From the NCBI RefSeq assembly GCF_044792175.1, contig NZ_CP172866.1: a DNA stretch of 64,000 bases. One strand, written 5' to 3'. The notes beneath the pieces were generated by a model that saw nothing but the letters and a program-made list of their open reading frames with translations, did not search any database and was not told the DNA's origin. Source of the stretch: Corallococcus coralloides (GTDB lineage Bacteria > Myxococcota > Myxococcia > Myxococcales > Myxococcaceae). Every line of letters starts with the position of its first letter. Position 1 is the first letter of the stretch. Below, in pieces: positions 35,609 through 45,038 of the stretch. The position numbers and the translations under genes are program-made.

Positions 35609-37363
35609 TCAGCTCCCCTTGATGGGGATGAACTCCACGCGGCGGTTCGCGCTGCGGCCCTCCGGCGTCTCGTTGGACACGCGCGGACGGTCGGGGCCGT
35701 AGCCCTTCGCCTCCAGCCGCGAGCCCGCGATGCCCTTCTGGATGAGGTACGCGCGCACGCGGTTCGCGCGCTGGTGGCTCAGCGTGCGGTTGGCCTCCTC
35801 AGGGCCGCTGTTGTCCGTGTGGCCTTCGATCCGGACCTTCAGCTTCGGGTTCGCCTTCAGGTAGGCCACGATGTCATCCAGTTGCTGCTGCTCGTTCTCC
35901 TGGAACTCCGACTGGTTCACCGGGAACTGGACGATGTGCTCCAGCGGCGACTTCGTCTCCTCCGCGGGCTGCTCCTCGGGAGGCGGCTGGGGCTTGGGCT
36001 CCTCGGGCTTGGGCTGCGGCTTCGCGGGGCAGCCACGCTCGGACGCGGGGCCCGCCTCGTTCGGGCAGGCGTCGTCCTTGTCCGGCACGCCGTCGCCATC
36101 CGTGTCCTTCACCGGGCAGCCGCGCTCGGAAGCCGGACCGGCCTCGTTCGGGCAGGCGTCGTCCTTGTCCGGCACGCCGTCACCATCCGTGTCCTTCACG
36201 GGGCAGCCGCGCTCGGAAGACGGACCGGCTTCGTTCGGGCACTGGTCCTCGCGGTCCACCACGCCGTCGCCGTCCGTGTCCTTGTCCGGGCAGCCGTTGT
36301 TCTCCACGGAGCCGGCCTCCAGCGGGCAGCGGTCGTCCTTGTTGGCCACGCCGTCGCCGTCGTCGTCCTCGTTGGGGCACTGCTCCGGCGTGTGGCTGCG
36401 GCCGGTGCGGCAGCGGTCCACGGGCTCGGGCTCGTTCGCGTACGCGATGCCCGCGGCCAGCCGGAACGACGGCGTGCCCGGGATGTCCGTGAAGCCGTGC
36501 CCGCCAAGAGCGAAGGCCTCGAAGCCCGCGCCCACCGGCAGCCGCACGCCGCCCAGCAGCTCCAGCGCCAGGTCCGACTCCACGAGCGACTCGGCGGCCT
36601 GCAGCGCGACTTCGGCGCGCAGCCCCTTGCCGCGCGTGGCCACCACCACGCCCTGCTCCAGCTCCGTGCCGACGTCGCGGCCCGGCTCGACCTCCTTGGA
36701 GCGGATCCGGATGCCCGCGTTGGCGCCCAGCACCACGGGGCCCACCTCGCGGCTGATGGACACGCGGGGCGCGAACTGGAACCCGGCCCAGCCCGCCTGG
36801 CGGCCGAACGCGTCCGCCGTGCCTCCCGGAATCCCGATGTCCAGGCCCAGGCCCAGGAACACCGGCGCGCCTTCCTCGCGCCGCAGCAGCTCGTAGCGCA
36901 CGCCCAGCTCCGGCGTGCCCAGGCCGAACGAGTCCGGCTCGCTCACGCCCACCAACTGCTCCGCGCCGTGACCGCCCTGCGCGATGATGACGGGCAGCTT
37001 CGCGGAGAACTCCAACCGGTCCACCGGCGACCACGCGCCGGCCAGCCAGCCCGCGGTGCGGTAGTGGAGGATGGAGCGCTCCAGCCCGTCACTGCCCTGG
37101 AGCAGCAGGATGCCGCGCTCGTAGTTGACCATGAGGAGCAGGCGGTAGCCGCCCTCGGGGAGCACGCGGCCGGTGTCCACCAGCATCGAGTCCGTCGCCG
37201 CCGGCGTGAAGCGCAGGCGCTCCAGGTCCAGCGGGACGAGCGGGCTCGTCGGGGTCTGCGCGAACGCGGCGGGGGTGACGGCGGTGGCCAGCAGCGCGGC
37301 CAGCGCCCAGCTCTTTGCCTTCATACGCAAGGGGAGGTCCATTCGAGAAAAGAGGGAGCGCAT
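35609..37363 (-). CDS. OmpA-family outer-membrane protein with thrombospondin type-3 (Ca-binding) repeats
   Basis: The protein has a signal peptide and a beta-rich N-domain. It has tandem repeats DTDGDGVPDKDDACPNEAGPASERGCPVK (TSP3). Its C-terminus is OmpA-like (RIEGHTDNSGPEEANRTLSHQRANRVRAYL). Confidence 0.85.
   Translation of the reverse strand: MRSLFSRMDLPLRMKAKSWALAALLATAVTPAAFAQTPTSPLVPLDLERLRFTPAATDSMLVDTGRVLPEGGYRLLLMVNYERGILLLQGSDGLERSILHYRTAGWLAGAWSPVDRLEFSAKLPVIIAQGGHGAEQLVGVSEPDSFGLGTPELGVRYELLRREEGAPVFLGLGLDIGIPGGTADAFGRQAGWAGFQFAPRVSISREVGPVVLGANAGIRIRSKEVEPGRDVGTELEQGVVVATRGKGLRAEVALQAAESLVESDLALELLGGVRLPVGAGFEAFALGGHGFTDIPGTPSFRLAAGIAYANEPEPVDRCRTGRSHTPEQCPNEDDDGDGVANKDDRCPLEAGSVENNGCPDKDTDGDGVVDREDQCPNEAGPSSERGCPVKDTDGDGVPDKDDACPNEAGPASERGCPVKDTDGDGVPDKDDACPNEAGPASERGCPAKPQPKPEEPKPQPPPEEQPAEETKSPLEHIVQFPVNQSEFQENEQQQLDDIVAYLKANPKLKVRIEGHTDNSGPEEANRTLSHQRANRVRAYLIQKGIAGSRLEAKGYGPDRPRVSNETPEGRSANRRVEFIPIKGS
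36030..36300. repeat. Near-identical tandem DNA repeats (about 93 nt x 3) encoding the TSP3 repeats
   Basis: The unit ...gggcagccgcgctcggaagccggaccggcctcgttcgggcaggcgtcgtccttgtccggcacgccgtc(g/a)ccatccgtgtccttcac is repeated with single-nucleotide differences. Confidence 0.5.
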
Positions 37364-37366
37364 GTC

Positions 37367-40300
37367 TCAGTTCCCCCGGGCCGGGTTCTGACGGCGACGC
37401 GACGTGCCCCAGGCCGCCAGCGCGGCGAGGAGCGCCAGCGCGGACGAGCCGCCGCCGGTGCTGTCGCAGCCACCGCCAGCGATCTCCACGACCTGCGCCT
37501 GGACCCGGACCTGGAACGTGCACTGCGCGGTGTTGCCCGCCTCATCCGTGGCGGTGACGGTGACCTGCGTGGCCCCCGGCGCGAACGCGCTGCCCGACTC
37601 GGGCGAGGACGTCACGGTGGGATTCGCCGTCACCGCGTCCGTGGCCGTGGGCGTGAACGTCACCTGCGTGTCCGGCGCCACCGTGATGTCCGCGGGGCAG
37701 GTGAGGGTGGGCGCGGTGGTGTCCTGCACCGTCACCGTGAACGTACAGGTGAGGCCGGTGGAGGTCGCGGTGACCGTCGTGGTGCCAATGGGGAAGAGCG
37801 CGCCCGACGGCTGCGAGTAGCTCACCGGGAGGCCCGCCGGCTCCAGCACCGCGGGGTCGTAGGTCACGATCGCGCCGTCCGGATCCGTCGCCTCCACGAC
37901 GAGGTTCGCGGGGCAGGTGAGGGTGGGGGCCACGACGTCCTCCGTCACGTTGAGGGTGACGGTGGCGACGTTGCTGTCCGTGGCGCAGTCGCGGACGCGG
38001 TACGTGAAGCTGTCCGGGCCCACGTAGCCGGCGGCGGGCGTGTACTCGAGGTTCCCCTGCGCGCTGGTGCCCAGCGTGCCGTGCTGCGGCGGGGTGACGA
38101 TCGTCCAGGTCAACACCTGCCCGACGTCCGGATCCGTGCCTGCCAGGGCGAGCGCCGTCGGCGTGTCCTTCTGGATGGTGACCGTCTGGTCCGCCGCCGT
38201 CGGGGGCTGGTTGGCGACGACCGTCACCATGCGGCCGCCGGGGATGGCGTTGGCGAAGACGGAGAGCGCGTAGGTGCCCAGCGGCACGTCGGCGGGCACG
38301 GTCACCGTCGCGCGGGTGTCCGAGGTGTTGCTGCTGGGGAGCGTCCAGAGACGCCCGCCCTCGGCGGCCTGCAGGCGCACCAGCGGGAAGTCGGTGGGCG
38401 AGTCCGCGCTGTTGCCGCCGCTTCCGCCGGAGATGCCCCGGAACCGCTGGCCCTCCACGACGGTGGGGCAGGCGGCCACGAGGGTCGCCGGGTTCGTCAC
38501 CGTGGGCTTCCAGGCGGTCTGGGCCCGGGTGTCGTCATACACCTGCGCGTTGGTGGCCTCCTGACCGCCGGCCAGCAGGACCTCGCCCGAGGACAGGGCG
38601 ACGCTGAACAGGCCTCCCGCGGCAGTGGGGTCCGCGACGTTGATCCACGCGCGGAGGAGGGGGTCATAGACCTCCGCCGTGTTGGCGTAGTCGCCATTCG
38701 TGGTGATGCCGCCCGCGACCAGCACCTTGCCGGAGGTCATCAGCGTGGCGGTGTGCAGCCAGCGCGGCTGCGAGAGCGCGCCCACGGACGTCCAGGTGTT
38801 GGTGCCGGGCGTGTAGAGCTCCGAGGACGTGAGCTCCGTGCCGCCCGAGATGCCGCCCGCCGCGAGCACCTGGCCTGACGGCAGCAGCGTCAACGTCAGC
38901 TCGTCCCGGGCGCCCGCGAGGCCCGCCGCCGGGGTCCAGGTGTCGTTGGCGGGGTTGTAGAGCTCCGCCGAGGCCAGCGCCGTGCCACCGGCGTTGTGGC
39001 CGCCAGCGACGAGCACCCGGCCGTCATGCAGCAGCACGGCGCGGTGTCCGGCGCGCGCCGCGACGAGCGAGCCCGCCGCGGTCCACGTATTCGTGTCGGG
39101 CGCGTAGAGCTCCGCGCTGCCCAGCACCGTGGTGTTCTGCTGACCGCCGACCACGAGCACGCGGCCATCCGGCAGGAGCGTGGCGGTGTGCAGGTGGCGC
39201 GGGCTCAGCATGTTCTCGGTGGCCAGCCACGTGTTGGTGGTGGGGTCGAAGCGCTGCGCGTTGGGCGTCGAGGTGTTCACGTTGCGGCCACCCGCGACCA
39301 GGACCTGTCCCGAGTGCAGGAGGGTGGCGGTGCCCCGCTCGCGCGGCACGTCGAGGTCGGGCAGGGCGGTCCACGCGTTGCTCGCGCGGTCATACAGCTC
39401 CGCCGCGGGTGACGACGTGAAGAGGCCGCGTCCTCCCACGACGAGCACCTGGCCGGAGGGCAGCAGCGCCGCCGCGGAGTCGGTCCGGGGCGTGCCCATG
39501 GTGCCAGCGGGAGACCAGCGGCTCAGGGCGGGGTCGTAGACCTCCGTCTGCGCGAAGAACGTCGTCCCGGGGGTCGTGGAGAATCCGCCCGCGATGAACA
39601 CCTTGCCCGAGGGCAGCAGCGTCGCGGTGTGGTTCTCGCGGCCGACGCTCATGGTGCCGCCGGAGGTCCACGTGCCGGTGGCAGGGTCGTAGATCTCGGC
39701 CGAGGTCAGCGCCGGCGACCCGAAGACAGAGCCGCCGGTGACGAGTACCCGGCCGTCAGGCAGCAGCGTGGCCATGTGGCCGGCGCGCGCGGACGCGAGG
39801 CTGCCGGTCGCGGTCCAGGTGTTGGCCGCCGGATCGTAGAGCTCCGACTGGGACGTGGCGCCGCCCGCGGCGAAGCCACCCGCGACGAGCACGCGGCCGT
39901 CGGGGAGCAGGGTGCTGGTGAAGTAGTGCCGGGCCACCAGCGGGGGCGCCGCGGCGGACCAGGTGCCGGTGGCCGGATTGTAGAGGTCGGCGCCGGACAC
40001 CTCTCCGCTGCCGCTGAAGCCGCTCACCACGAGCACGCGCCCATCGCGCAGCCGCGTGGCGCTGTGCGCGTTCCGGCCCACGGACATGGAGCCCGTGGCG
40101 GTGAAGGCGTTGGTCGCGGGGTCGTAGAGCTCCGCGGTCGCGAGCCGGACGCCGCCGCCGCCGGTGCCGCCCGCGATCAGGACCTGTCCCGTGGCCAGCA
40201 GCGTGGCCGTGGGGAGGCTGCGGGTCGAGGCCATGTTGCCCGTGCCGGACCAGGTGTTGGCCACGGGATCATAGATGCGTCCCCCCTGCGAGCCGTCGGT

Positions 40301-40666
40301 CAGCACCAGCACCTTGCCCGAGGGAAGGAGCACGGCCAGGGTGATGTTGCCCGTGAGGCTGGAGGTCCCCGCGGAGGCCCAGGTGTTGGTGGCGGGATCG
40401 TAGGTGTCCGCCGCGCTCACGAAGCCGGTCGTGTTGACGCCGTTGACGACGAGCAGCTTCCCGTTGGGTAGCAGGACGGCCGCGTGTTGCCCGCGTGGCG
40501 TCCCCATGGGAGCGGTGGCGTACCAGGCCGGCGGCGCCGCGAGACGGGCGTGCGTGGCGCGGATGCCCTCGGATGCCGCCGGGCGCTCGTTCCCGCCGCA
40601 GGACAGAAGGCCCAGGCTCGCGGCGAACAACAGGAGCCTGCTCCAGACAGCGCGTTGTGACCGCAT
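37367..40666 (-). CDS. Kelch-repeat lipoprotein with C-terminal beta-sandwich (HYR/cadherin-like) domains and MYXO-CTERM-like sorting tail
   Basis: The protein has the lipobox LLSCGG and more than 12 Kelch motifs (…LLPDGRVLV.GG…). Its C-terminus reads GGGCDSTGGGSSALALLAALAAWGTSRRRQ, which resembles a MYXO-CTERM. The gene is 4 nt upstream of the OmpA-TSP3 gene. Confidence 0.8.
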   Translation of the reverse strand: MRSQRAVWSRLLLFAASLGLLSCGGNERPAASEGIRATHARLAAPPAWYATAPMGTPRGQHAAVLLPNGKLLVVNGVNTTGFVSAADTYDPATNTWASAGTSSLTGNITLAVLLPSGKVLVLTDGSQGGRIYDPVANTWSGTGNMASTRSLPTATLLATGQVLIAGGTGGGGVRLATAELYDPATNAFTATGSMSVGRNAHSATRLRDGRVLVVSGFSGSGEVSGADLYNPATGTWSAAAPPLVARHYFTSTLLPDGRVLVAGGFAAGGATSQSELYDPAANTWTATGSLASARAGHMATLLPDGRVLVTGGSVFGSPALTSAEIYDPATGTWTSGGTMSVGRENHTATLLPSGKVFIAGGFSTTPGTTFFAQTEVYDPALSRWSPAGTMGTPRTDSAAALLPSGQVLVVGGRGLFTSSPAAELYDRASNAWTALPDLDVPRERGTATLLHSGQVLVAGGRNVNTSTPNAQRFDPTTNTWLATENMLSPRHLHTATLLPDGRVLVVGGQQNTTVLGSAELYAPDTNTWTAAGSLVAARAGHRAVLLHDGRVLVAGGHNAGGTALASAELYNPANDTWTPAAGLAGARDELTLTLLPSGQVLAAGGISGGTELTSSELYTPGTNTWTSVGALSQPRWLHTATLMTSGKVLVAGGITTNGDYANTAEVYDPLLRAWINVADPTAAGGLFSVALSSGEVLLAGGQEATNAQVYDDTRAQTAWKPTVTNPATLVAACPTVVEGQRFRGISGGSGGNSADSPTDFPLVRLQAAEGGRLWTLPSSNTSDTRATVTVPADVPLGTYALSVFANAIPGGRMVTVVANQPPTAADQTVTIQKDTPTALALAGTDPDVGQVLTWTIVTPPQHGTLGTSAQGNLEYTPAAGYVGPDSFTYRVRDCATDSNVATVTLNVTEDVVAPTLTCPANLVVEATDPDGAIVTYDPAVLEPAGLPVSYSQPSGALFPIGTTTVTATSTGLTCTFTVTVQDTTAPTLTCPADITVAPDTQVTFTPTATDAVTANPTVTSSPESGSAFAPGATQVTVTATDEAGNTAQCTFQVRVQAQVVEIAGGGCDSTGGGSSALALLAALAAWGTSRRRQNPARGN

Positions 40667-40795: not shown

Positions 40796-41851
40796 TTACC
40801 CATCACGTGGGTCGTAGACCTTCTCGGGAGGGGCCTCCAGGAAGCGGCGCCACCAGAGACGGGCCTCGTCCTGGGTGTACCCCTCGAAATTGTTGAAGGG
40901 AGTGGAAGGCAGGAGCCACGGTTCCAGGAACCGCGCCAGCTCCCGATAGGCCGGCAGCGTCTCACCCCACTTCGTGTTCCCCGCGAGCGGCGCGGGGCCC
41001 AGGCCGATCAGGGCACGACCTCCACTGAGTTCCTGGACGGAGGTCTCCGGGTGGCTCAGGTGCGAGCGGAGCGCCTGGGCGCCGCCAATGGTTTCGAGGA
41101 GGGGAGGGCCCAGGAAGTTCAACCAGTGGATGCCATCCACCCCTTCTCCCATGCCCCACGTGCTCTCTCGTGGGACATCCCAGCCGGGATGCTGGACCAG
41201 TCGGTCCTTCAGGAGGGGAAGGAGCCTCGATCTCCCACGGGTGAACGAAAGCGACAGTCCCGCATGGCCCGTGCTGAAGGGAAGGAGCTCCGCCAGCGAA
41301 AGCGCCAGCTCACGTGCCTTCTCGGGCCCCTGGTCCTCCAGATATCGCATGGGGACCTTCACACTCAGAACGCTGTACTCAGAAGAAGGTTTTCGCCAGG
41401 GAAGACGAGAGCGGAAGCTGAATTCATAGCCACTGGGGTCCGACTCTCCACCGACGAGATGGACCCACGTGTCAAAGCCCCGCTTGGTCAGCGTGCGGAA
41501 CCAGATGGAGTCCTGGTCCATGTCATCCAAGGGCTCGAAGCGAGACCTCTCGACATGGCGCCGCAGCTCCTCCCAGAACTCAGGTGTGAGCGGAAACGCC
41601 GCCTCACTGATGTCGGGGTCATAGCCCGTGGTCAATTTTTCAGGCGCATCTCCAATGGCGTTGAGAAACAGGTCCAGTGACTGTCTCGCATATGGAGCAA
41701 GTGAGCCGTGGTCATGCGGCAGATAGAACACGATGCGCAGGACAAGCTGGACCCTGGGAAGTGTCGTGGCGAAGTGCTCGGAGGGAGTGTAGCTAGTCAC
41801 GAATGATCCCGAACTGGGGTGTGATGATGGCGGGGTTGCACTGCCCATCAA
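40796..41851 (-). CDS. Hypothetical cytoplasmic protein, candidate immunity/partner of the upstream nuclease-like lipoprotein
   Basis: The ORF has a non-shadow composition and overlaps the end of the upstream lipoprotein gene by 59 nt, so the true start may be internal. I recognise no domain. Confidence 0.45.
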   Translation of the reverse strand: MMGSATPPSSHPSSGSFVTSYTPSEHFATTLPRVQLVLRIVFYLPHDHGSLAPYARQSLDLFLNAIGDAPEKLTTGYDPDISEAAFPLTPEFWEELRRHVERSRFEPLDDMDQDSIWFRTLTKRGFDTWVHLVGGESDPSGYEFSFRSRLPWRKPSSEYSVLSVKVPMRYLEDQGPEKARELALSLAELLPFSTGHAGLSLSFTRGRSRLLPLLKDRLVQHPGWDVPRESTWGMGEGVDGIHWLNFLGPPLLETIGGAQALRSHLSHPETSVQELSGGRALIGLGPAPLAGNTKWGETLPAYRELARFLEPWLLPSTPFNNFEGYTQDEARLWWRRFLEAPPEKVYDPRDG

Positions 41852-42518
41852 GGTTTGCGTACCGGGTCATCTGCGCCTGTGTTTCTGGAACCGAGCGTGG
41901 ATTGCTCTTTCGTGCCTTGAGGCACGGAAACTTGAAGTCGTAGATGCACTGGGCCTGATCCGGTCGGCCTGAGGCGTGAAGGACGATGTCAGGCTTCAGG
42001 ATGTCCTGGTTCCCCGCCTTGCCCGTGCGAATCACATAGCTCGGCTCGATCGAAACGTTGTTGGGGAAGAGCCGGAGGATTTCGCGCCGCACGCATGCGA
42101 AGGCAACGTCATGCTTCATCGTCCCAAGCTCGGCCTGTCGTCGGATGGGATCGCCGTTCTTGTCGTAACCCACCACACGCATGCACTCCGCGTCATCCGG
42201 GGACTTCCCCTCACCGTACTCACGCTCATTGACGAGGTGGTTCGCCTCCTTCGCGCACTCCACCAACAGGTGCTCGATGCGGGCCACGTCCGCGGCTTCC
42301 AGGAGCTTCATCGTGGCTCCCGCCGAGGCCGCGGCCCTCGCGGCCTTGTCCACCCAGGGCAGGAACGCCTCGTCCCCCGGCTGCGTGTAGCAGGCGGGAT
42401 TGCGCAGGCATCCACTGGTCGCGGAGTCCGTGGTCTGCGCGTACTGCCTCGGCCCCGAAGCGCACGACAGACACAGCAGGGCCACCAGTCCACACAGCAG
42501 GCGACCCTCAGTCATCAT
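41793..42518 (-). CDS. Lipoprotein with C-terminal PD-(D/E)xK nuclease-like signature (candidate polymorphic toxin)
   Basis: I chose the internal start MMTEGRLLCGLVALLCLSCASG (lipobox LSC). The C-terminal region has E (VRREILRL), PD (KPDIVLH) and D-x-K (IYDFKFP) in canonical restriction-endonuclease-fold order. Confidence 0.5.
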   Translation of the reverse strand: MMTEGRLLCGLVALLCLSCASGPRQYAQTTDSATSGCLRNPACYTQPGDEAFLPWVDKAARAAASAGATMKLLEAADVARIEHLLVECAKEANHLVNEREYGEGKSPDDAECMRVVGYDKNGDPIRRQAELGTMKHDVAFACVRREILRLFPNNVSIEPSYVIRTGKAGNQDILKPDIVLHASGRPDQAQCIYDFKFPCLKARKSNPRSVPETQAQMTRYANLDGQCNPAIITPQFGIIRD

Positions 42519-43491
42519 CTTCACCCGCGTCGTGCGCCGCCGCGTTGAAGAGGCCAAAGCCCCCGGCCTCCTCGCTGGAGATGTCCGCCCGGCGCAGAGC
42601 AGGGGAGTCCCGCGTCTGTCCCACCGCCATCCACCGGGGCGCCGCCAGCAGCACGCCGTCCCTCGGCAGCTCCGGCAGCAGGTGCTCCAGGTCACCAAGG
42701 ATGAACTCCGCGTGCCCCACGCCCTCGGGCTCCGGCAGCCCCACCGGCGGATGCCACGCGCCTCCGTCCAGGTGCCCGAAGGGGAAGCTCCCCGTGCCGC
42801 TCGCCCCTCCGTACCCGCCCTCCAGCAGCCGCCTTGTCCGCTCCACCCCTCCCGTCACCGCCGGCAGGCACACGCGCGTCAGCCAGTCCCAGGTCGCCGC
42901 GCCCTCCTCCACGGGCCAGTCCAGCTCCACCGTGTCGTCCGCCTTCGCCAGCAGCGCGTCGATGTACGCACACGCCGCCCGCGGCCCCAGCACGCCGCCC
43001 CGGCGCGCCTCCTCCACCGCCGCGGGCCACAGCTCCTCGCGGTAGTAGTGCGCGAAGTAGAAGCCCGGCTCGTCCCACTCCGGACGCGCGCCCCGCGGCA
43101 GCTTCGCCAGCACCAGCCCGCTCGACAGGTACGCGGGCCCCGTGGCCCAGGGATGGAACTGGCTGAAGGCCAGCCGGAACACCCGCACCGCCAGCCCCGC
43201 CTCCTCCGTCGCCTCCAACCCCTCCGGACACCCCGCGCGCAGGTGGAAGTCGTCGAAGCGCAGGAACACGTCCACCCCCATGCCCACCGCGCTCTGACAC
43301 AGCGACTCCAGGCACTCCGCCAGCGGATGCCCCGCATGCACGGGGGCCTCCCACGCCGCCGCCCGCACCGTGCGCGTCTCTGCCTCCACCCGCAGCGACA
43401 GCCGCACCCGGCCGCCCCCGAACGCAGCCTCCCCGTGCCGGACGTCCTCCCCGTGAAGCACGCCCCGATGTTCCTGCCCTGGAGTCGTCAT
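42508..43491 (-). CDS. Hypothetical protein
   Basis: This is the minus-strand ORF with balanced composition, starting at MTTPGQEH. The plus-strand ORF 42400.. over the same DNA is R/P/Q-rich and is a shadow. It overlaps the downstream lipoprotein gene by 11 nt. Confidence 0.5.
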   Translation of the reverse strand: MTTPGQEHRGVLHGEDVRHGEAAFGGGRVRLSLRVEAETRTVRAAAWEAPVHAGHPLAECLESLCQSAVGMGVDVFLRFDDFHLRAGCPEGLEATEEAGLAVRVFRLAFSQFHPWATGPAYLSSGLVLAKLPRGARPEWDEPGFYFAHYYREELWPAAVEEARRGGVLGPRAACAYIDALLAKADDTVELDWPVEEGAATWDWLTRVCLPAVTGGVERTRRLLEGGYGGASGTGSFPFGHLDGGAWHPPVGLPEPEGVGHAEFILGDLEHLLPELPRDGVLLAAPRWMAVGQTRDSPALRRADISSEEAGGFGLFNAAAHDAGEDDD

Positions 43492-43539
43492 GCTAGGCAC
43501 CCATCCTTTCCCACACGTCCCCTCCAGGCCAGGAGCCCC

Positions 43540-44391
43540 ATGTCCGAGCCCTCCCATCCGCGCGACGGCGACTTCGAGCTCGTCACCCTGCGCAACGGCC
43601 ACCGCGCCGTGCGCCACCTGGGCCATGGCGAGGTCATGCACCCCGCGGTGGGCCCGTGGCAGGAGGCCCTGCGCCTCTACGTCGACCAGCCCGGCCTCGC
43701 GGACCGCCTGCGAAAGCCCGGCCCGCCGCTTGTCATCCACGACGTGGGCCTGGGCGCCGCCACCAACGCCGTCGCCGCGCTCACCCGCGCCCGGGAGCTG
43801 GGCCCCGACCGCGCCCGCGACCTGCACATCGTCAGCTTCGAGGTGGACCTGGCCCCCCTGCGGCTCGCGCTCGCGGACGCGGAGGGCTTCCCCTTCCTCC
43901 AGCCGTTCCGCGAGGCCGCCGAGCGCCTCATGAAGCACGGCGCCTGGTCCGAGCCCGGCCTCCAGTGGACCCTCAAGCTGGGGGACGCCGTGCCCTTCCT
44001 GGAGCCGGACGCGCAGCTCCCCCCCGCGGACCTCGTCTTCTTCGACCCGTTCTCACCCGCGTCCAACCCGGACATGTGGACCGAGGCCGTGCTCGCCCGG
44101 GTGCGCCGGCATTGCCGGGAAGACGGGGAGGGCGCCCTGCTGATGACCTACAGCGCGGCCACGCCCACCCGCGTCACGCTGCTGCTCGCGGGGTTCTACG
44201 TGGGCGCCGGCGCTTCCACCGGCACCAAGGGGGAGACCACCGTGGCCTCGACCCGCTACGAGACACTGACCGCCCCGCTGGGGACCCGGTGGCTGGAGCG
44301 CTGGGAGCGCTCGTCCTCCCGGGCCCCGCACGGCGGCACCCTCACGCCTGAGGTCGAGCGTCGCCTCCGGACCCATCCTCAGTGGCGCTGA
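43540..44391 (+). CDS. mnmD: tRNA 5-methylaminomethyl-2-thiouridine methyltransferase, MnmD (MnmC N-domain/DUF752) homolog
   Basis: The ATG is at 43540 within ORF 42400..44391. The protein has LVIHDVGLGAATNAV and FFDPFSPASNPDMWTEAVL, both MnmC methyltransferase-domain signatures. Confidence 0.7.
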   Translation: MSEPSHPRDGDFELVTLRNGHRAVRHLGHGEVMHPAVGPWQEALRLYVDQPGLADRLRKPGPPLVIHDVGLGAATNAVAALTRARELGPDRARDLHIVSFEVDLAPLRLALADAEGFPFLQPFREAAERLMKHGAWSEPGLQWTLKLGDAVPFLEPDAQLPPADLVFFDPFSPASNPDMWTEAVLARVRRHCREDGEGALLMTYSAATPTRVTLLLAGFYVGAGASTGTKGETTVASTRYETLTAPLGTRWLERWERSSSRAPHGGTLTPEVERRLRTHPQWR

Positions 44392-44959
44392 GCGCCCCTT
44401 CCACGGGGGCCTCGCTCCAGCGCAGATGGAACGTGGCCGCCGTGCCGTCGAACTCCTCCGGCAGCGCCACCACCCGCCAACCCCCGCACAGCGCCACCGC
44501 GCGCGCCAGCAGACCCGCCGCGAACGTCGGCTGGTCCGCCAGCACGTCGTTCATCCAGAGCTCCAGCGATGTCGCGCCGCGCTCCACGATTTTGACTTCA
44601 CTGAAGTTGTTGCCGGCGCGAAAGCCCAGGTCCGCCCGCAGCAGCATCCTCCGGGGACCGGCCAGCCGGCCCACGCCCAGCAGCGCGCGGCCAAAGAACG
44701 TCCCGAAGTAGGCGTCCATGAAGCGCTCGCCCAGGGAATAGTACGCGGCCTCCGCCGGCACGCCGCCATAGACGTGGCCCGCCGCGATGCGCAGGAACTC
44801 CCGCCACTGCTCCAGCGAATAGGTGCGCTCCAGCTTCTTGTCGAGGTCCAGCCCAGCCCGCTTGAGGTGCTCTCGGCACGCGGGCGTCAGACGATTCTCC
44901 AACGCGCGGACGAAGAGCGCCTCGACGGTCTGGGCGAAGACAAGCTTCTCAGGATTCAT
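44342..44959 (-). CDS. TIGR02265/DUF2378 family protein (myxobacterial paralogous family)
   Basis: The protein starts MNPEKLVFAQTVEALFVRALENRLTPACREHLKRAGLDLD...LEQWREFLRIAAGHVY...FMDAY, which matches my memory of the TIGR02265 consensus. Confidence 0.6.
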   Translation of the reverse strand: MNPEKLVFAQTVEALFVRALENRLTPACREHLKRAGLDLDKKLERTYSLEQWREFLRIAAGHVYGGVPAEAAYYSLGERFMDAYFGTFFGRALLGVGRLAGPRRMLLRADLGFRAGNNFSEVKIVERGATSLELWMNDVLADQPTFAAGLLARAVALCGGWRVVALPEEFDGTAATFHLRWSEAPVEGALSATEDGSGGDARPQA

Positions 44960-45038
44960 GCGGAGCACCCTACACGAAGCCCCCCATGCGATGCTCCCCC
45001 ACCTGTGTACTGACGTTCAGTGCCGTGCCCCCCGAGTG

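Follow-up and report, generated by a model that had tools for sequence, protein, structure and literature searches.

Three overlapping genes on the minus strand of the Corallococcus coralloides chromosome, at positions 40796–43491 of the 64,000-nucleotide (nt) stretch of DNA that was analyzed (the window), include a two-gene cassette of a short lipoprotein with a predicted nuclease domain and a TsiV (DUF3396) protein, which very probably form a toxin/immunity pair. The best explanation for the cassette as a whole, favored on balance, is that its toxin is delivered by outer-membrane exchange. The lipoprotein toxin gene (41793–42518, minus strand; ATG at 42518, TAG at 41793–41795) encodes 241 amino acids (aa) that are 100% identical to the C. 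coralloides hypothetical protein ACIHQR_16095; a preliminary description of this DNA had correctly recognized a lipoprotein, but its length of 242 aa included the stop codon. The immunity gene lies downstream (40796–41800, minus strand; 334 aa) and starts with GTG at 41800, in agreement with the annotated orthologue in strain DSM 2259, overlapping the toxin gene by 8 nt (GTGACTAG), while the upstream gene (42508–43491, minus strand; 327 aa) runs 11 nt into the lipoprotein gene and ends there with a TGA stop codon (42508–42510; GATGATGACTGA). The arrangement of three overlapping genes described earlier, with 11 nt shared upstream and a second overlap downstream, is borne out by these coordinates, and the GC content at the codon positions agrees with all three reading frames.

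The lipoprotein/TsiV pair and its family

Linkage of the two genes was found in every related locus examined: among 81 loci, of which 78 belong to species-representative genomes, the toxin homologue adjoined a TsiV gene without exception (81/81), the latter lying directly downstream in 79 and upstream in two. The reversed order belongs to two Pyxidicoccus loci (L011/L012), in which a gene for a KefB-like antiporter is followed by TsiV and then by the toxin. Such linkage identifies a toxin/immunity pair of the polymorphic-toxin type, which the preliminary description had put forward as a candidate. The two partners vary together in their identity to the window pair (Pearson 0.92, Spearman 0.65, n = 86 pairs). 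Tandem toxin/TsiV arrays were present in L015, L023, L035, L046, L053, L055, L069 and L070, the longest with three successive pairs in Archangium minus (L069), and surplus TsiV genes without a toxin in L041 and L073. At the syntenic site of Corallococcus carmarthensis (L047, 6001–7358) the toxin is truncated to residues 128–240 and has no signal peptide, while its TsiV is intact and 69% identical, which fits an orphan immunity gene that has been retained.

The assignment of the downstream protein as the immunity partner, also anticipated in the preliminary description, was supported by a match to the Pfam family TsiV (PF11876, formerly DUF3396) with an E-value of 2.1e-40 and 139.3 bits, the cutoff being 25. 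When 29 TsiV homologues, headed by the window protein, were combined into a profile (profile A2), it matched PA0821 of Pseudomonas aeruginosa (PDB 7DRG) at E 3.6e-22 over positions 5–271, nearly the full length; the profile was required for this, the window protein as a single sequence having no match in the PDB. The Pfam family is described as 'Type VI immunity for VRR-NUC', and its members neutralize the TseV nucleases of the Salmonella bongori type VI secretion system (T6SS), with the crystal structure of TseV3:TsiV3 indicating that the DNA-binding site of TseV3 is likely occluded by TsiV3 (PMC9635880). By sequence reading, the window TsiV has no signal peptide and should therefore be cytoplasmic.

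A first search returned 145 relatives of the toxin, all from Myxococcaceae/Archangiaceae or metagenomes, annotated as hypothetical proteins or lipoproteins and mostly 210–290 aa long. An exhaustive profile search among 1.84 billion representatives gave 232 cluster representatives (50% identity), and the species-representative genomes contained 198 toxin-family matches. As a lipoprotein, the toxin was seen in Myxococcaceae/Archangiaceae only, frequently in multiple copies, with three or four dispersed copies in several genomes. M. fulvus HW-1 and M. xanthus DK1622 were not found among the cluster members by a name look-up, which is not conclusive. A typical myxobacterial toxin/TsiV pair was also present in an assembly labeled Comamonas sp. 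KCTC 72670 (BNCN01000019.1, locus L074; 70.7% GC), which is probably mislabeled or contaminated.

The predicted nuclease domain and its relatives

The toxin domain occupies residues 74–241 (41796..42299, minus strand), and its catalytic core, P176-D177 ... D194-F-K196 ... Q216-x-x-x-Y220 (41859..41993, minus strand), is conserved in 96–100% of 183 homologues: D177 (41988–41990) in 100%, D194 (41937–41939) in 96% with Glu replacing it in seven sequences, K196 (41931–41933) in 97%, and Q216 and Y220 of the QxxxY motif in 96 and 99%, respectively. Outside this core, H136 is kept in 98% and E158 in 84%. The conservation of D177, D194 and K196 indicates that the motif E158...P176-D177...D194-F-K196, noticed before in the C-terminal half of the protein, is a genuine active site and not a chance occurrence. 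The C-terminal domain has the alpha-beta-beta-beta-alpha-beta core of the PD-(D/E)xK fold, whose strands beta2 and beta3 bear the conserved catalytic D ... (D/E)-x-K, and the fold check suggested in the preliminary description thus came out in favor of this superfamily. The domain is likely to be a PD-(D/E)xK nuclease of a TseV-like kind. Neither Pfam (nothing at E ≤ 1) nor NCBIfam gave a match to the toxin, and the sole match of its profile among PDB sequences was spurious (E 0.6).

Four cysteines of the domain, C88, C112, C142 and C199, are 99–100% conserved in the same homologues, including the PAAR-linked T6SS version P0227. C88 and C142 are replaced jointly in two of the 183 (P0253 and P0270), the only sequences missing either residue, and this joint loss points to two pairs, of disulfides or of ligands, and not to a single four-Cys cluster.

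The toxin/immunity module proved to be most closely related to the type VI TseV/TsiV pairs, such as TseV2/3-TsiV2/3 of Salmonella bongori and TseV-PA/PA0821 of P. aeruginosa (PMC9635880); the preliminary description had likened the genes to SitA only and did not mention them. When the toxin-domain alignment was compared by HHalign with the TseV core alignment that had appeared in eLife 2022 (Figure 3 source data), the two matched over 45 columns (86%, E 5e-6, score 35.6) with the catalytic motifs in register: PDIVLH, YDFKFP and Q...Y..LGG of the toxin against PDVVIV, VEIKFP and Q...Y..IAG of TseV. Control comparisons with a reversed alignment and 12 column-shuffled ones scored 7.5–13.3, and the Aave_0499 clade aligned with the toxin domain away from the motifs (1%, score 15.9), while TseV itself scored 21.2 against Aave_0499, which the TseV authors treated as related. 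By this comparison the toxin domain would be placed closest to the TseV (Plu1493-like VRR-Nuc) clade. The adjacent DUF3396/TsiV immunity gene typical of that clade is present, but a lipoprotein signal peptide takes the place of a T6SS delivery module in the window protein.

The toxin domain also occurs on other carriers. It was found on two Tox-PAAR-like proteins, one of which has a DUF2169 adaptor gene before its own gene and TsiV behind it; such PAAR-like fusions were seen only in the distant homologues P0227 and P0243. In a soil metagenome (L084, 1100–3297), the 451-aa protein P0188 combines a signal peptide, DUF2380 and the TseV-like nuclease domain, and its gene is followed by TsiV (E 1e-58) with a 4-nt overlap; from its sequence, P0188 looks like the addition or replacement of a toxin domain on a SitA6-type protein. 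Homologues with other, unrelated N-termini are likewise followed by TsiV. The recurrence of the toxin domain with TsiV behind differing N-termini is a signature of polymorphic-toxin modules. A comparable cluster was observed on a conjugative plasmid of Burkholderia contaminans (NZ_CP090639.1; L082, 3376–5456), where a DUF2169 gene, a DUF4150 (PAAR-like) effector gene and TsiV follow each other, and the C-terminal domain of the effector contains the motif LD...YDMKF, similar to the YDFKF strand of the window toxin; the direct hmmsearch of this effector with the toxin profile was not significant, although the YD(F/M)KF strands align, and Pfam VRR_NUC did not match it.

Delivery and alternative functions

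The N-terminus of the toxin reads as a type II signal peptide with a lipobox (residues 1–19; 42462..42518, minus strand), MMTEGRLLCGLVALLCLS|C19ASG, whose lipidated Cys19 (42462–42464) is retained by 90% or more of the 43 homologues aligned, most of them with an L-x-[AGS]-C lipobox; the LSC lipobox named in the preliminary description is therefore well founded. The sequence from Cys19 onward, C19-A-S-G-P-R-Q, has neither Lys at +2 nor Ala at +7, the outer-membrane sorting criteria that were applied to SitA (PMC5562445). The lipoprotein-specific region that follows (residues 20–73; 42300..42461, minus strand) is a tether with a Cys loop, conserved in the same 43 sequences (YAQ..DSATSGC37LRNPAC43), and the start of a long helix; residues 20–60 were modeled at low confidence (pLDDT 45–66). 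In homologues with other N-termini, the alignment to the family profile begins only near position 74. Fusions of the N-terminal module to another toxin were sought and not found, the candidates P0204, P0240 and P0244 each retaining part of the toxin domain, which indicates that the region is not a swappable carrier and that the family is non-modular, diversifying by sequence divergence.

SitA proteins, lipoprotein nucleases whose downstream genes encode cytoplasmic immunity, are transferred by means of TraAB and confined to species with traAB. The window protein has a lipoprotein signal with the outer-membrane sorting features of SitA, and the pair has a C-terminal nuclease with an immunity gene downstream in the same operon; the distribution of the family among taxa, its copy number and its non-modular design are likewise consistent with outer-membrane exchange. 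By this analogy, SitA-like exchange is the best available model of delivery and can be held with modest confidence. The 241-aa product consists of a type II signal peptide, a Cys-loop tether of ~55 aa and a PD-(D/E)xK domain of ~170 aa; as a lipoprotein it would be transferred to neighboring myxobacteria during TraAB-dependent outer-membrane exchange, like the SitA toxins, and would get into the recipient cytoplasm by an unspecified route, where it may cleave DNA through D177/D194/K196 and a divalent metal. Siblings would be spared by the cytoplasmic TsiV blocking the nuclease, and cells without the matching TsiV allele would die.

The SitA-like logic proposed earlier stands as far as a lipoprotein nuclease with downstream immunity is concerned, but the family does not belong to SitA1/2, SitA3 or SitA6. 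No similarity to SitA3 (MXAN_1899) was detected beyond the signal peptide, and the orthologue COCOR_04790 (P0005, 78% identical) is missing from the published lists of SitA1/2 and SitA3 homologues, although C. coralloides has members in both; on these two grounds SitA1/2 and SitA3 membership was ruled out. SitA6 is defined by DUF2380/TIGR02269 (PMC12077181), and its membership was ruled out by the absence of a DUF2380 (PF09533) or NCBIfam match in the window lipoprotein. SitA4, SitA6 and SitA7 are non-modular; SitA4 and SitA6 carry AHH nucleases, which makes identity with SitA4 unlikely. SitA7 is non-modular and a 'predicted DNase'; identity with it, compared by description only, is rather unlikely.

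Several observations weigh against the proposed exchange of a TseV-like toxin. On the side of the enzyme, a Foldseek search of the toxin model against the PDB returned nothing at E ≤ 0.001, and Pfam VRR_NUC (PF08774) matched neither the toxin nor its PAAR-linked homologues (none at E ≤ 0.1), so that the domain is named TseV-like and not a confirmed TseV member; the link to TseV consists of a 45-column profile alignment and the common immunity family. The four invariant cysteines suggest folding in an oxidizing compartment or a metal site. On the side of delivery, position -3 of the lipobox is Cys, slightly non-canonical and outside the usual pattern; the nuclease domain follows the lipid anchor after only ~55 residues, while SitA escort domains, described as ~375 aa, determine cytoplasmic entry, and the route of a protein with so short a tether across the periplasm and the inner membrane is unexplained by the proposed model. 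The restriction to Myxococcaceae/Archangiaceae could be explained by plain phylogeny, and the pair is catalogued by PADLOC as a phage-defense candidate.

The alternative that survives best, distinctly unlikely as it is, is a nuclease exported outside outer-membrane exchange, in vesicles or on the surface, with prey, extracellular DNA or the periplasm as its target, TsiV only shielding the producer from mislocalized or re-entering enzyme. The lipoprotein signal peptide, the N-terminal domain that is not of escort size and the conserved cysteines, consistent with an extracytoplasmic protein, would all suit it, and myxobacteria load lipoproteins and hydrolases into vesicles. A strictly extracellular nuclease, however, would need no allele-matched, co-diverging cytoplasmic immunity protein; tandem toxin/immunity arrays and surplus immunity genes would be unexpected for it, and relatives of the toxin domain enter bacterial cells via the T6SS.

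A role in anti-phage defense, with a TsiV-like partner restraining the nuclease until infection releases it in the style of toxin-antitoxin or abortive-infection systems, is very improbable. It derives from the PADLOC candidate PDC-M20, which is the same two-gene cassette, both hidden Markov models matching at E ≤ 1e-60 (PDC-M20A to the toxin, E 3.8e-66; PDC-M20B to the adjacent TsiV, E 1.6e-109). PDC-M20, with 167 instances in RefSeq v209, is an untested candidate nominated by 'guilt-by-embedding', for which at least one cassette copy embedded in BREX, DISARM or type I restriction-modification was needed and a single one sufficed (bioRxiv 10.1101/2024.01.29.577857), so that its status is that of a candidate only. 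The conserved lipoprotein signal would take the nuclease out of the compartment in which phage DNA replicates; the same toxin domain and TsiV occur with T6SS PAAR-like effectors and a DUF2169 adaptor, and TsiV is an experimentally demonstrated T6SS immunity family (PMC9635880). No recognizable defense genes were present among the scanned neighbors in the window, while the tandem arrays and surplus immunity genes are what interbacterial toxins typically show. Taken together, the export signal, the ties to TsiV/T6SS and the array structure make a defense role unlikely and favor interbacterial antagonism over the defense label; PDC-M20 is probably an interbacterial toxin pair and not a phage-defense system, a reassignment that bears on the counts of defense systems in myxobacterial genomes.

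A three-gene cassette of the sitBAI type, as the preliminary description had suggested, is largely refuted: although the 11-nt overlap equals the length published for sitB/sitA and the upstream gene stands next to the toxin gene in the same orientation at every syntenic Corallococcus locus, SitB carries a type I signal sequence and is predicted to form an outer-membrane beta-barrel (PMC5562445), with homologues upstream of sitA, whereas the upstream protein lacks a signal peptide, its N-terminal fold is IscU/NifU-like, and in strain DSM 2259 the overlap is 8 nt. It matched nothing in Pfam or NCBIfam and has eight relatives only, with identities of 79% or more, every one from a Corallococcus-type genome; its gene was present in the 15 syntenic Corallococcus loci and absent from the 66 non-syntenic ones among the 81. 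It is probably co-transcribed with the cassette and not a conserved part of the system. A link of the IscU-like protein to iron-sulfur maturation of the four-Cys toxin was considered and rejected, the gene being genus-specific and the pattern of Cys loss indicating pairs.

The content of GC at third codon positions is host-like (~0.95) in the upstream and flanking genes against 0.7–0.88 in the lipoprotein and TsiV genes, and the overall GC dips regionally to 0.61–0.66 from ~0.72 in the surroundings, which makes the pair resemble an acquired cassette behind a resident gene. In Corallococcus the chromosomal position of the lipoprotein/TsiV cassette is constant, right behind a genus-specific gene to which it is unrelated. 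Between the upstream and the toxin gene, a promoter/terminator scan found no internal promoter; a single promoter-like site lay 3' of TsiV and probably drives the next gene, and no further copies of the cassette were found within the window. The upstream orphan gene is separated by ~48 bp (43492–43540) from a divergent gene for an MnmC-like methyltransferase (Methyltransf_30, E 1e-17), so that both divergent promoters must sit in or overlap this spacer or the adjoining coding sequence. Three further neighbors (35609–40666 and 44342–44968, minus strand), none of them linked to the cassette in other genera, encode a Kelch-repeat protein of 1099 aa whose N-terminus is of the lipoprotein type, a member of the OmpA family with Asp-rich repeats like those of thrombospondin type 3, and a protein with DUF2378 (Pfam E 7e-59).

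Comparison with known systems

The best structural match of the toxin domain is Cas4, an iron-sulfur nuclease. Sequence identity with the Cas4/RecB-family PD-(D/E)xK nucleases (e.g., SSO0001, PDB 4IC1) is 8–14%, the iron-sulfur ligand cysteines of Cas4 are at other positions than the cysteines of the toxin domain, and, unlike this family, the toxin locus has no CRISPR or repair context.

With TseV/TsiV the cassette has in common an immunity gene of PF11876, with a profile matching PA0821, directly downstream of the toxin gene, and a PD-(D/E)xK nuclease with an aligned PD / (D/E)xK / Q..Y core; distant homologues of the window toxin domain even bear the PAAR-like N-terminus of the TseV type. 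In the window protein, by contrast, the PAAR-like domain is replaced by a lipoprotein signal peptide, and it therefore cannot be classical T6SS cargo. The catalytic acid of the window toxin is in D-x-K, the usual form being E-x-K, and the four cysteines are invariant in the window family, while Cys199 (KFPC), inside the TseV core alignment, is missing in TseV. The components are individually known, and the novelty is the TseV/TsiV module on a short lipoprotein carrier, which depends on the family not being SitA7.

That the family represents an additional, minimal group of outer-membrane-exchange toxins, reaching the cytoplasm with a Cys-loop tether and no escort domain, can be proposed tentatively. 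If so, the import determinant would be in the TseV-like nuclease domain or in a short N-terminal motif, making the protein a very small test case for an outer-membrane-anchored nuclease entering the cytoplasm, and TseV/TsiV modules would shift between T6SS and outer-membrane-exchange delivery. A single nuclease/immunity module would then use three vehicles, the short lipoprotein, T6SS PAAR-like effectors and a SitA6-type protein, a clear case of toxin-module exchange among secretion routes, and a widespread multi-copy locus would be added to the 'self-identity barcode' of myxobacterial kin discrimination.

With the SitA toxins the window family has in common an outer-membrane-type lipobox, a C-terminal nuclease, an overlapping downstream gene for a cytoplasmic immunity protein, several diverged copies per genome and confinement to Myxococcaceae/Archangiaceae, and with SitA4, SitA6 and SitA7 also the non-modular design; a further tie to SitA6 is the single metagenomic protein in which a window-type toxin domain is fused to DUF2380. 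It differs from SitA in its small size, the window protein having 241 aa with ~55 residues ahead of the toxin domain, against SitA escort domains of ~375 aa.

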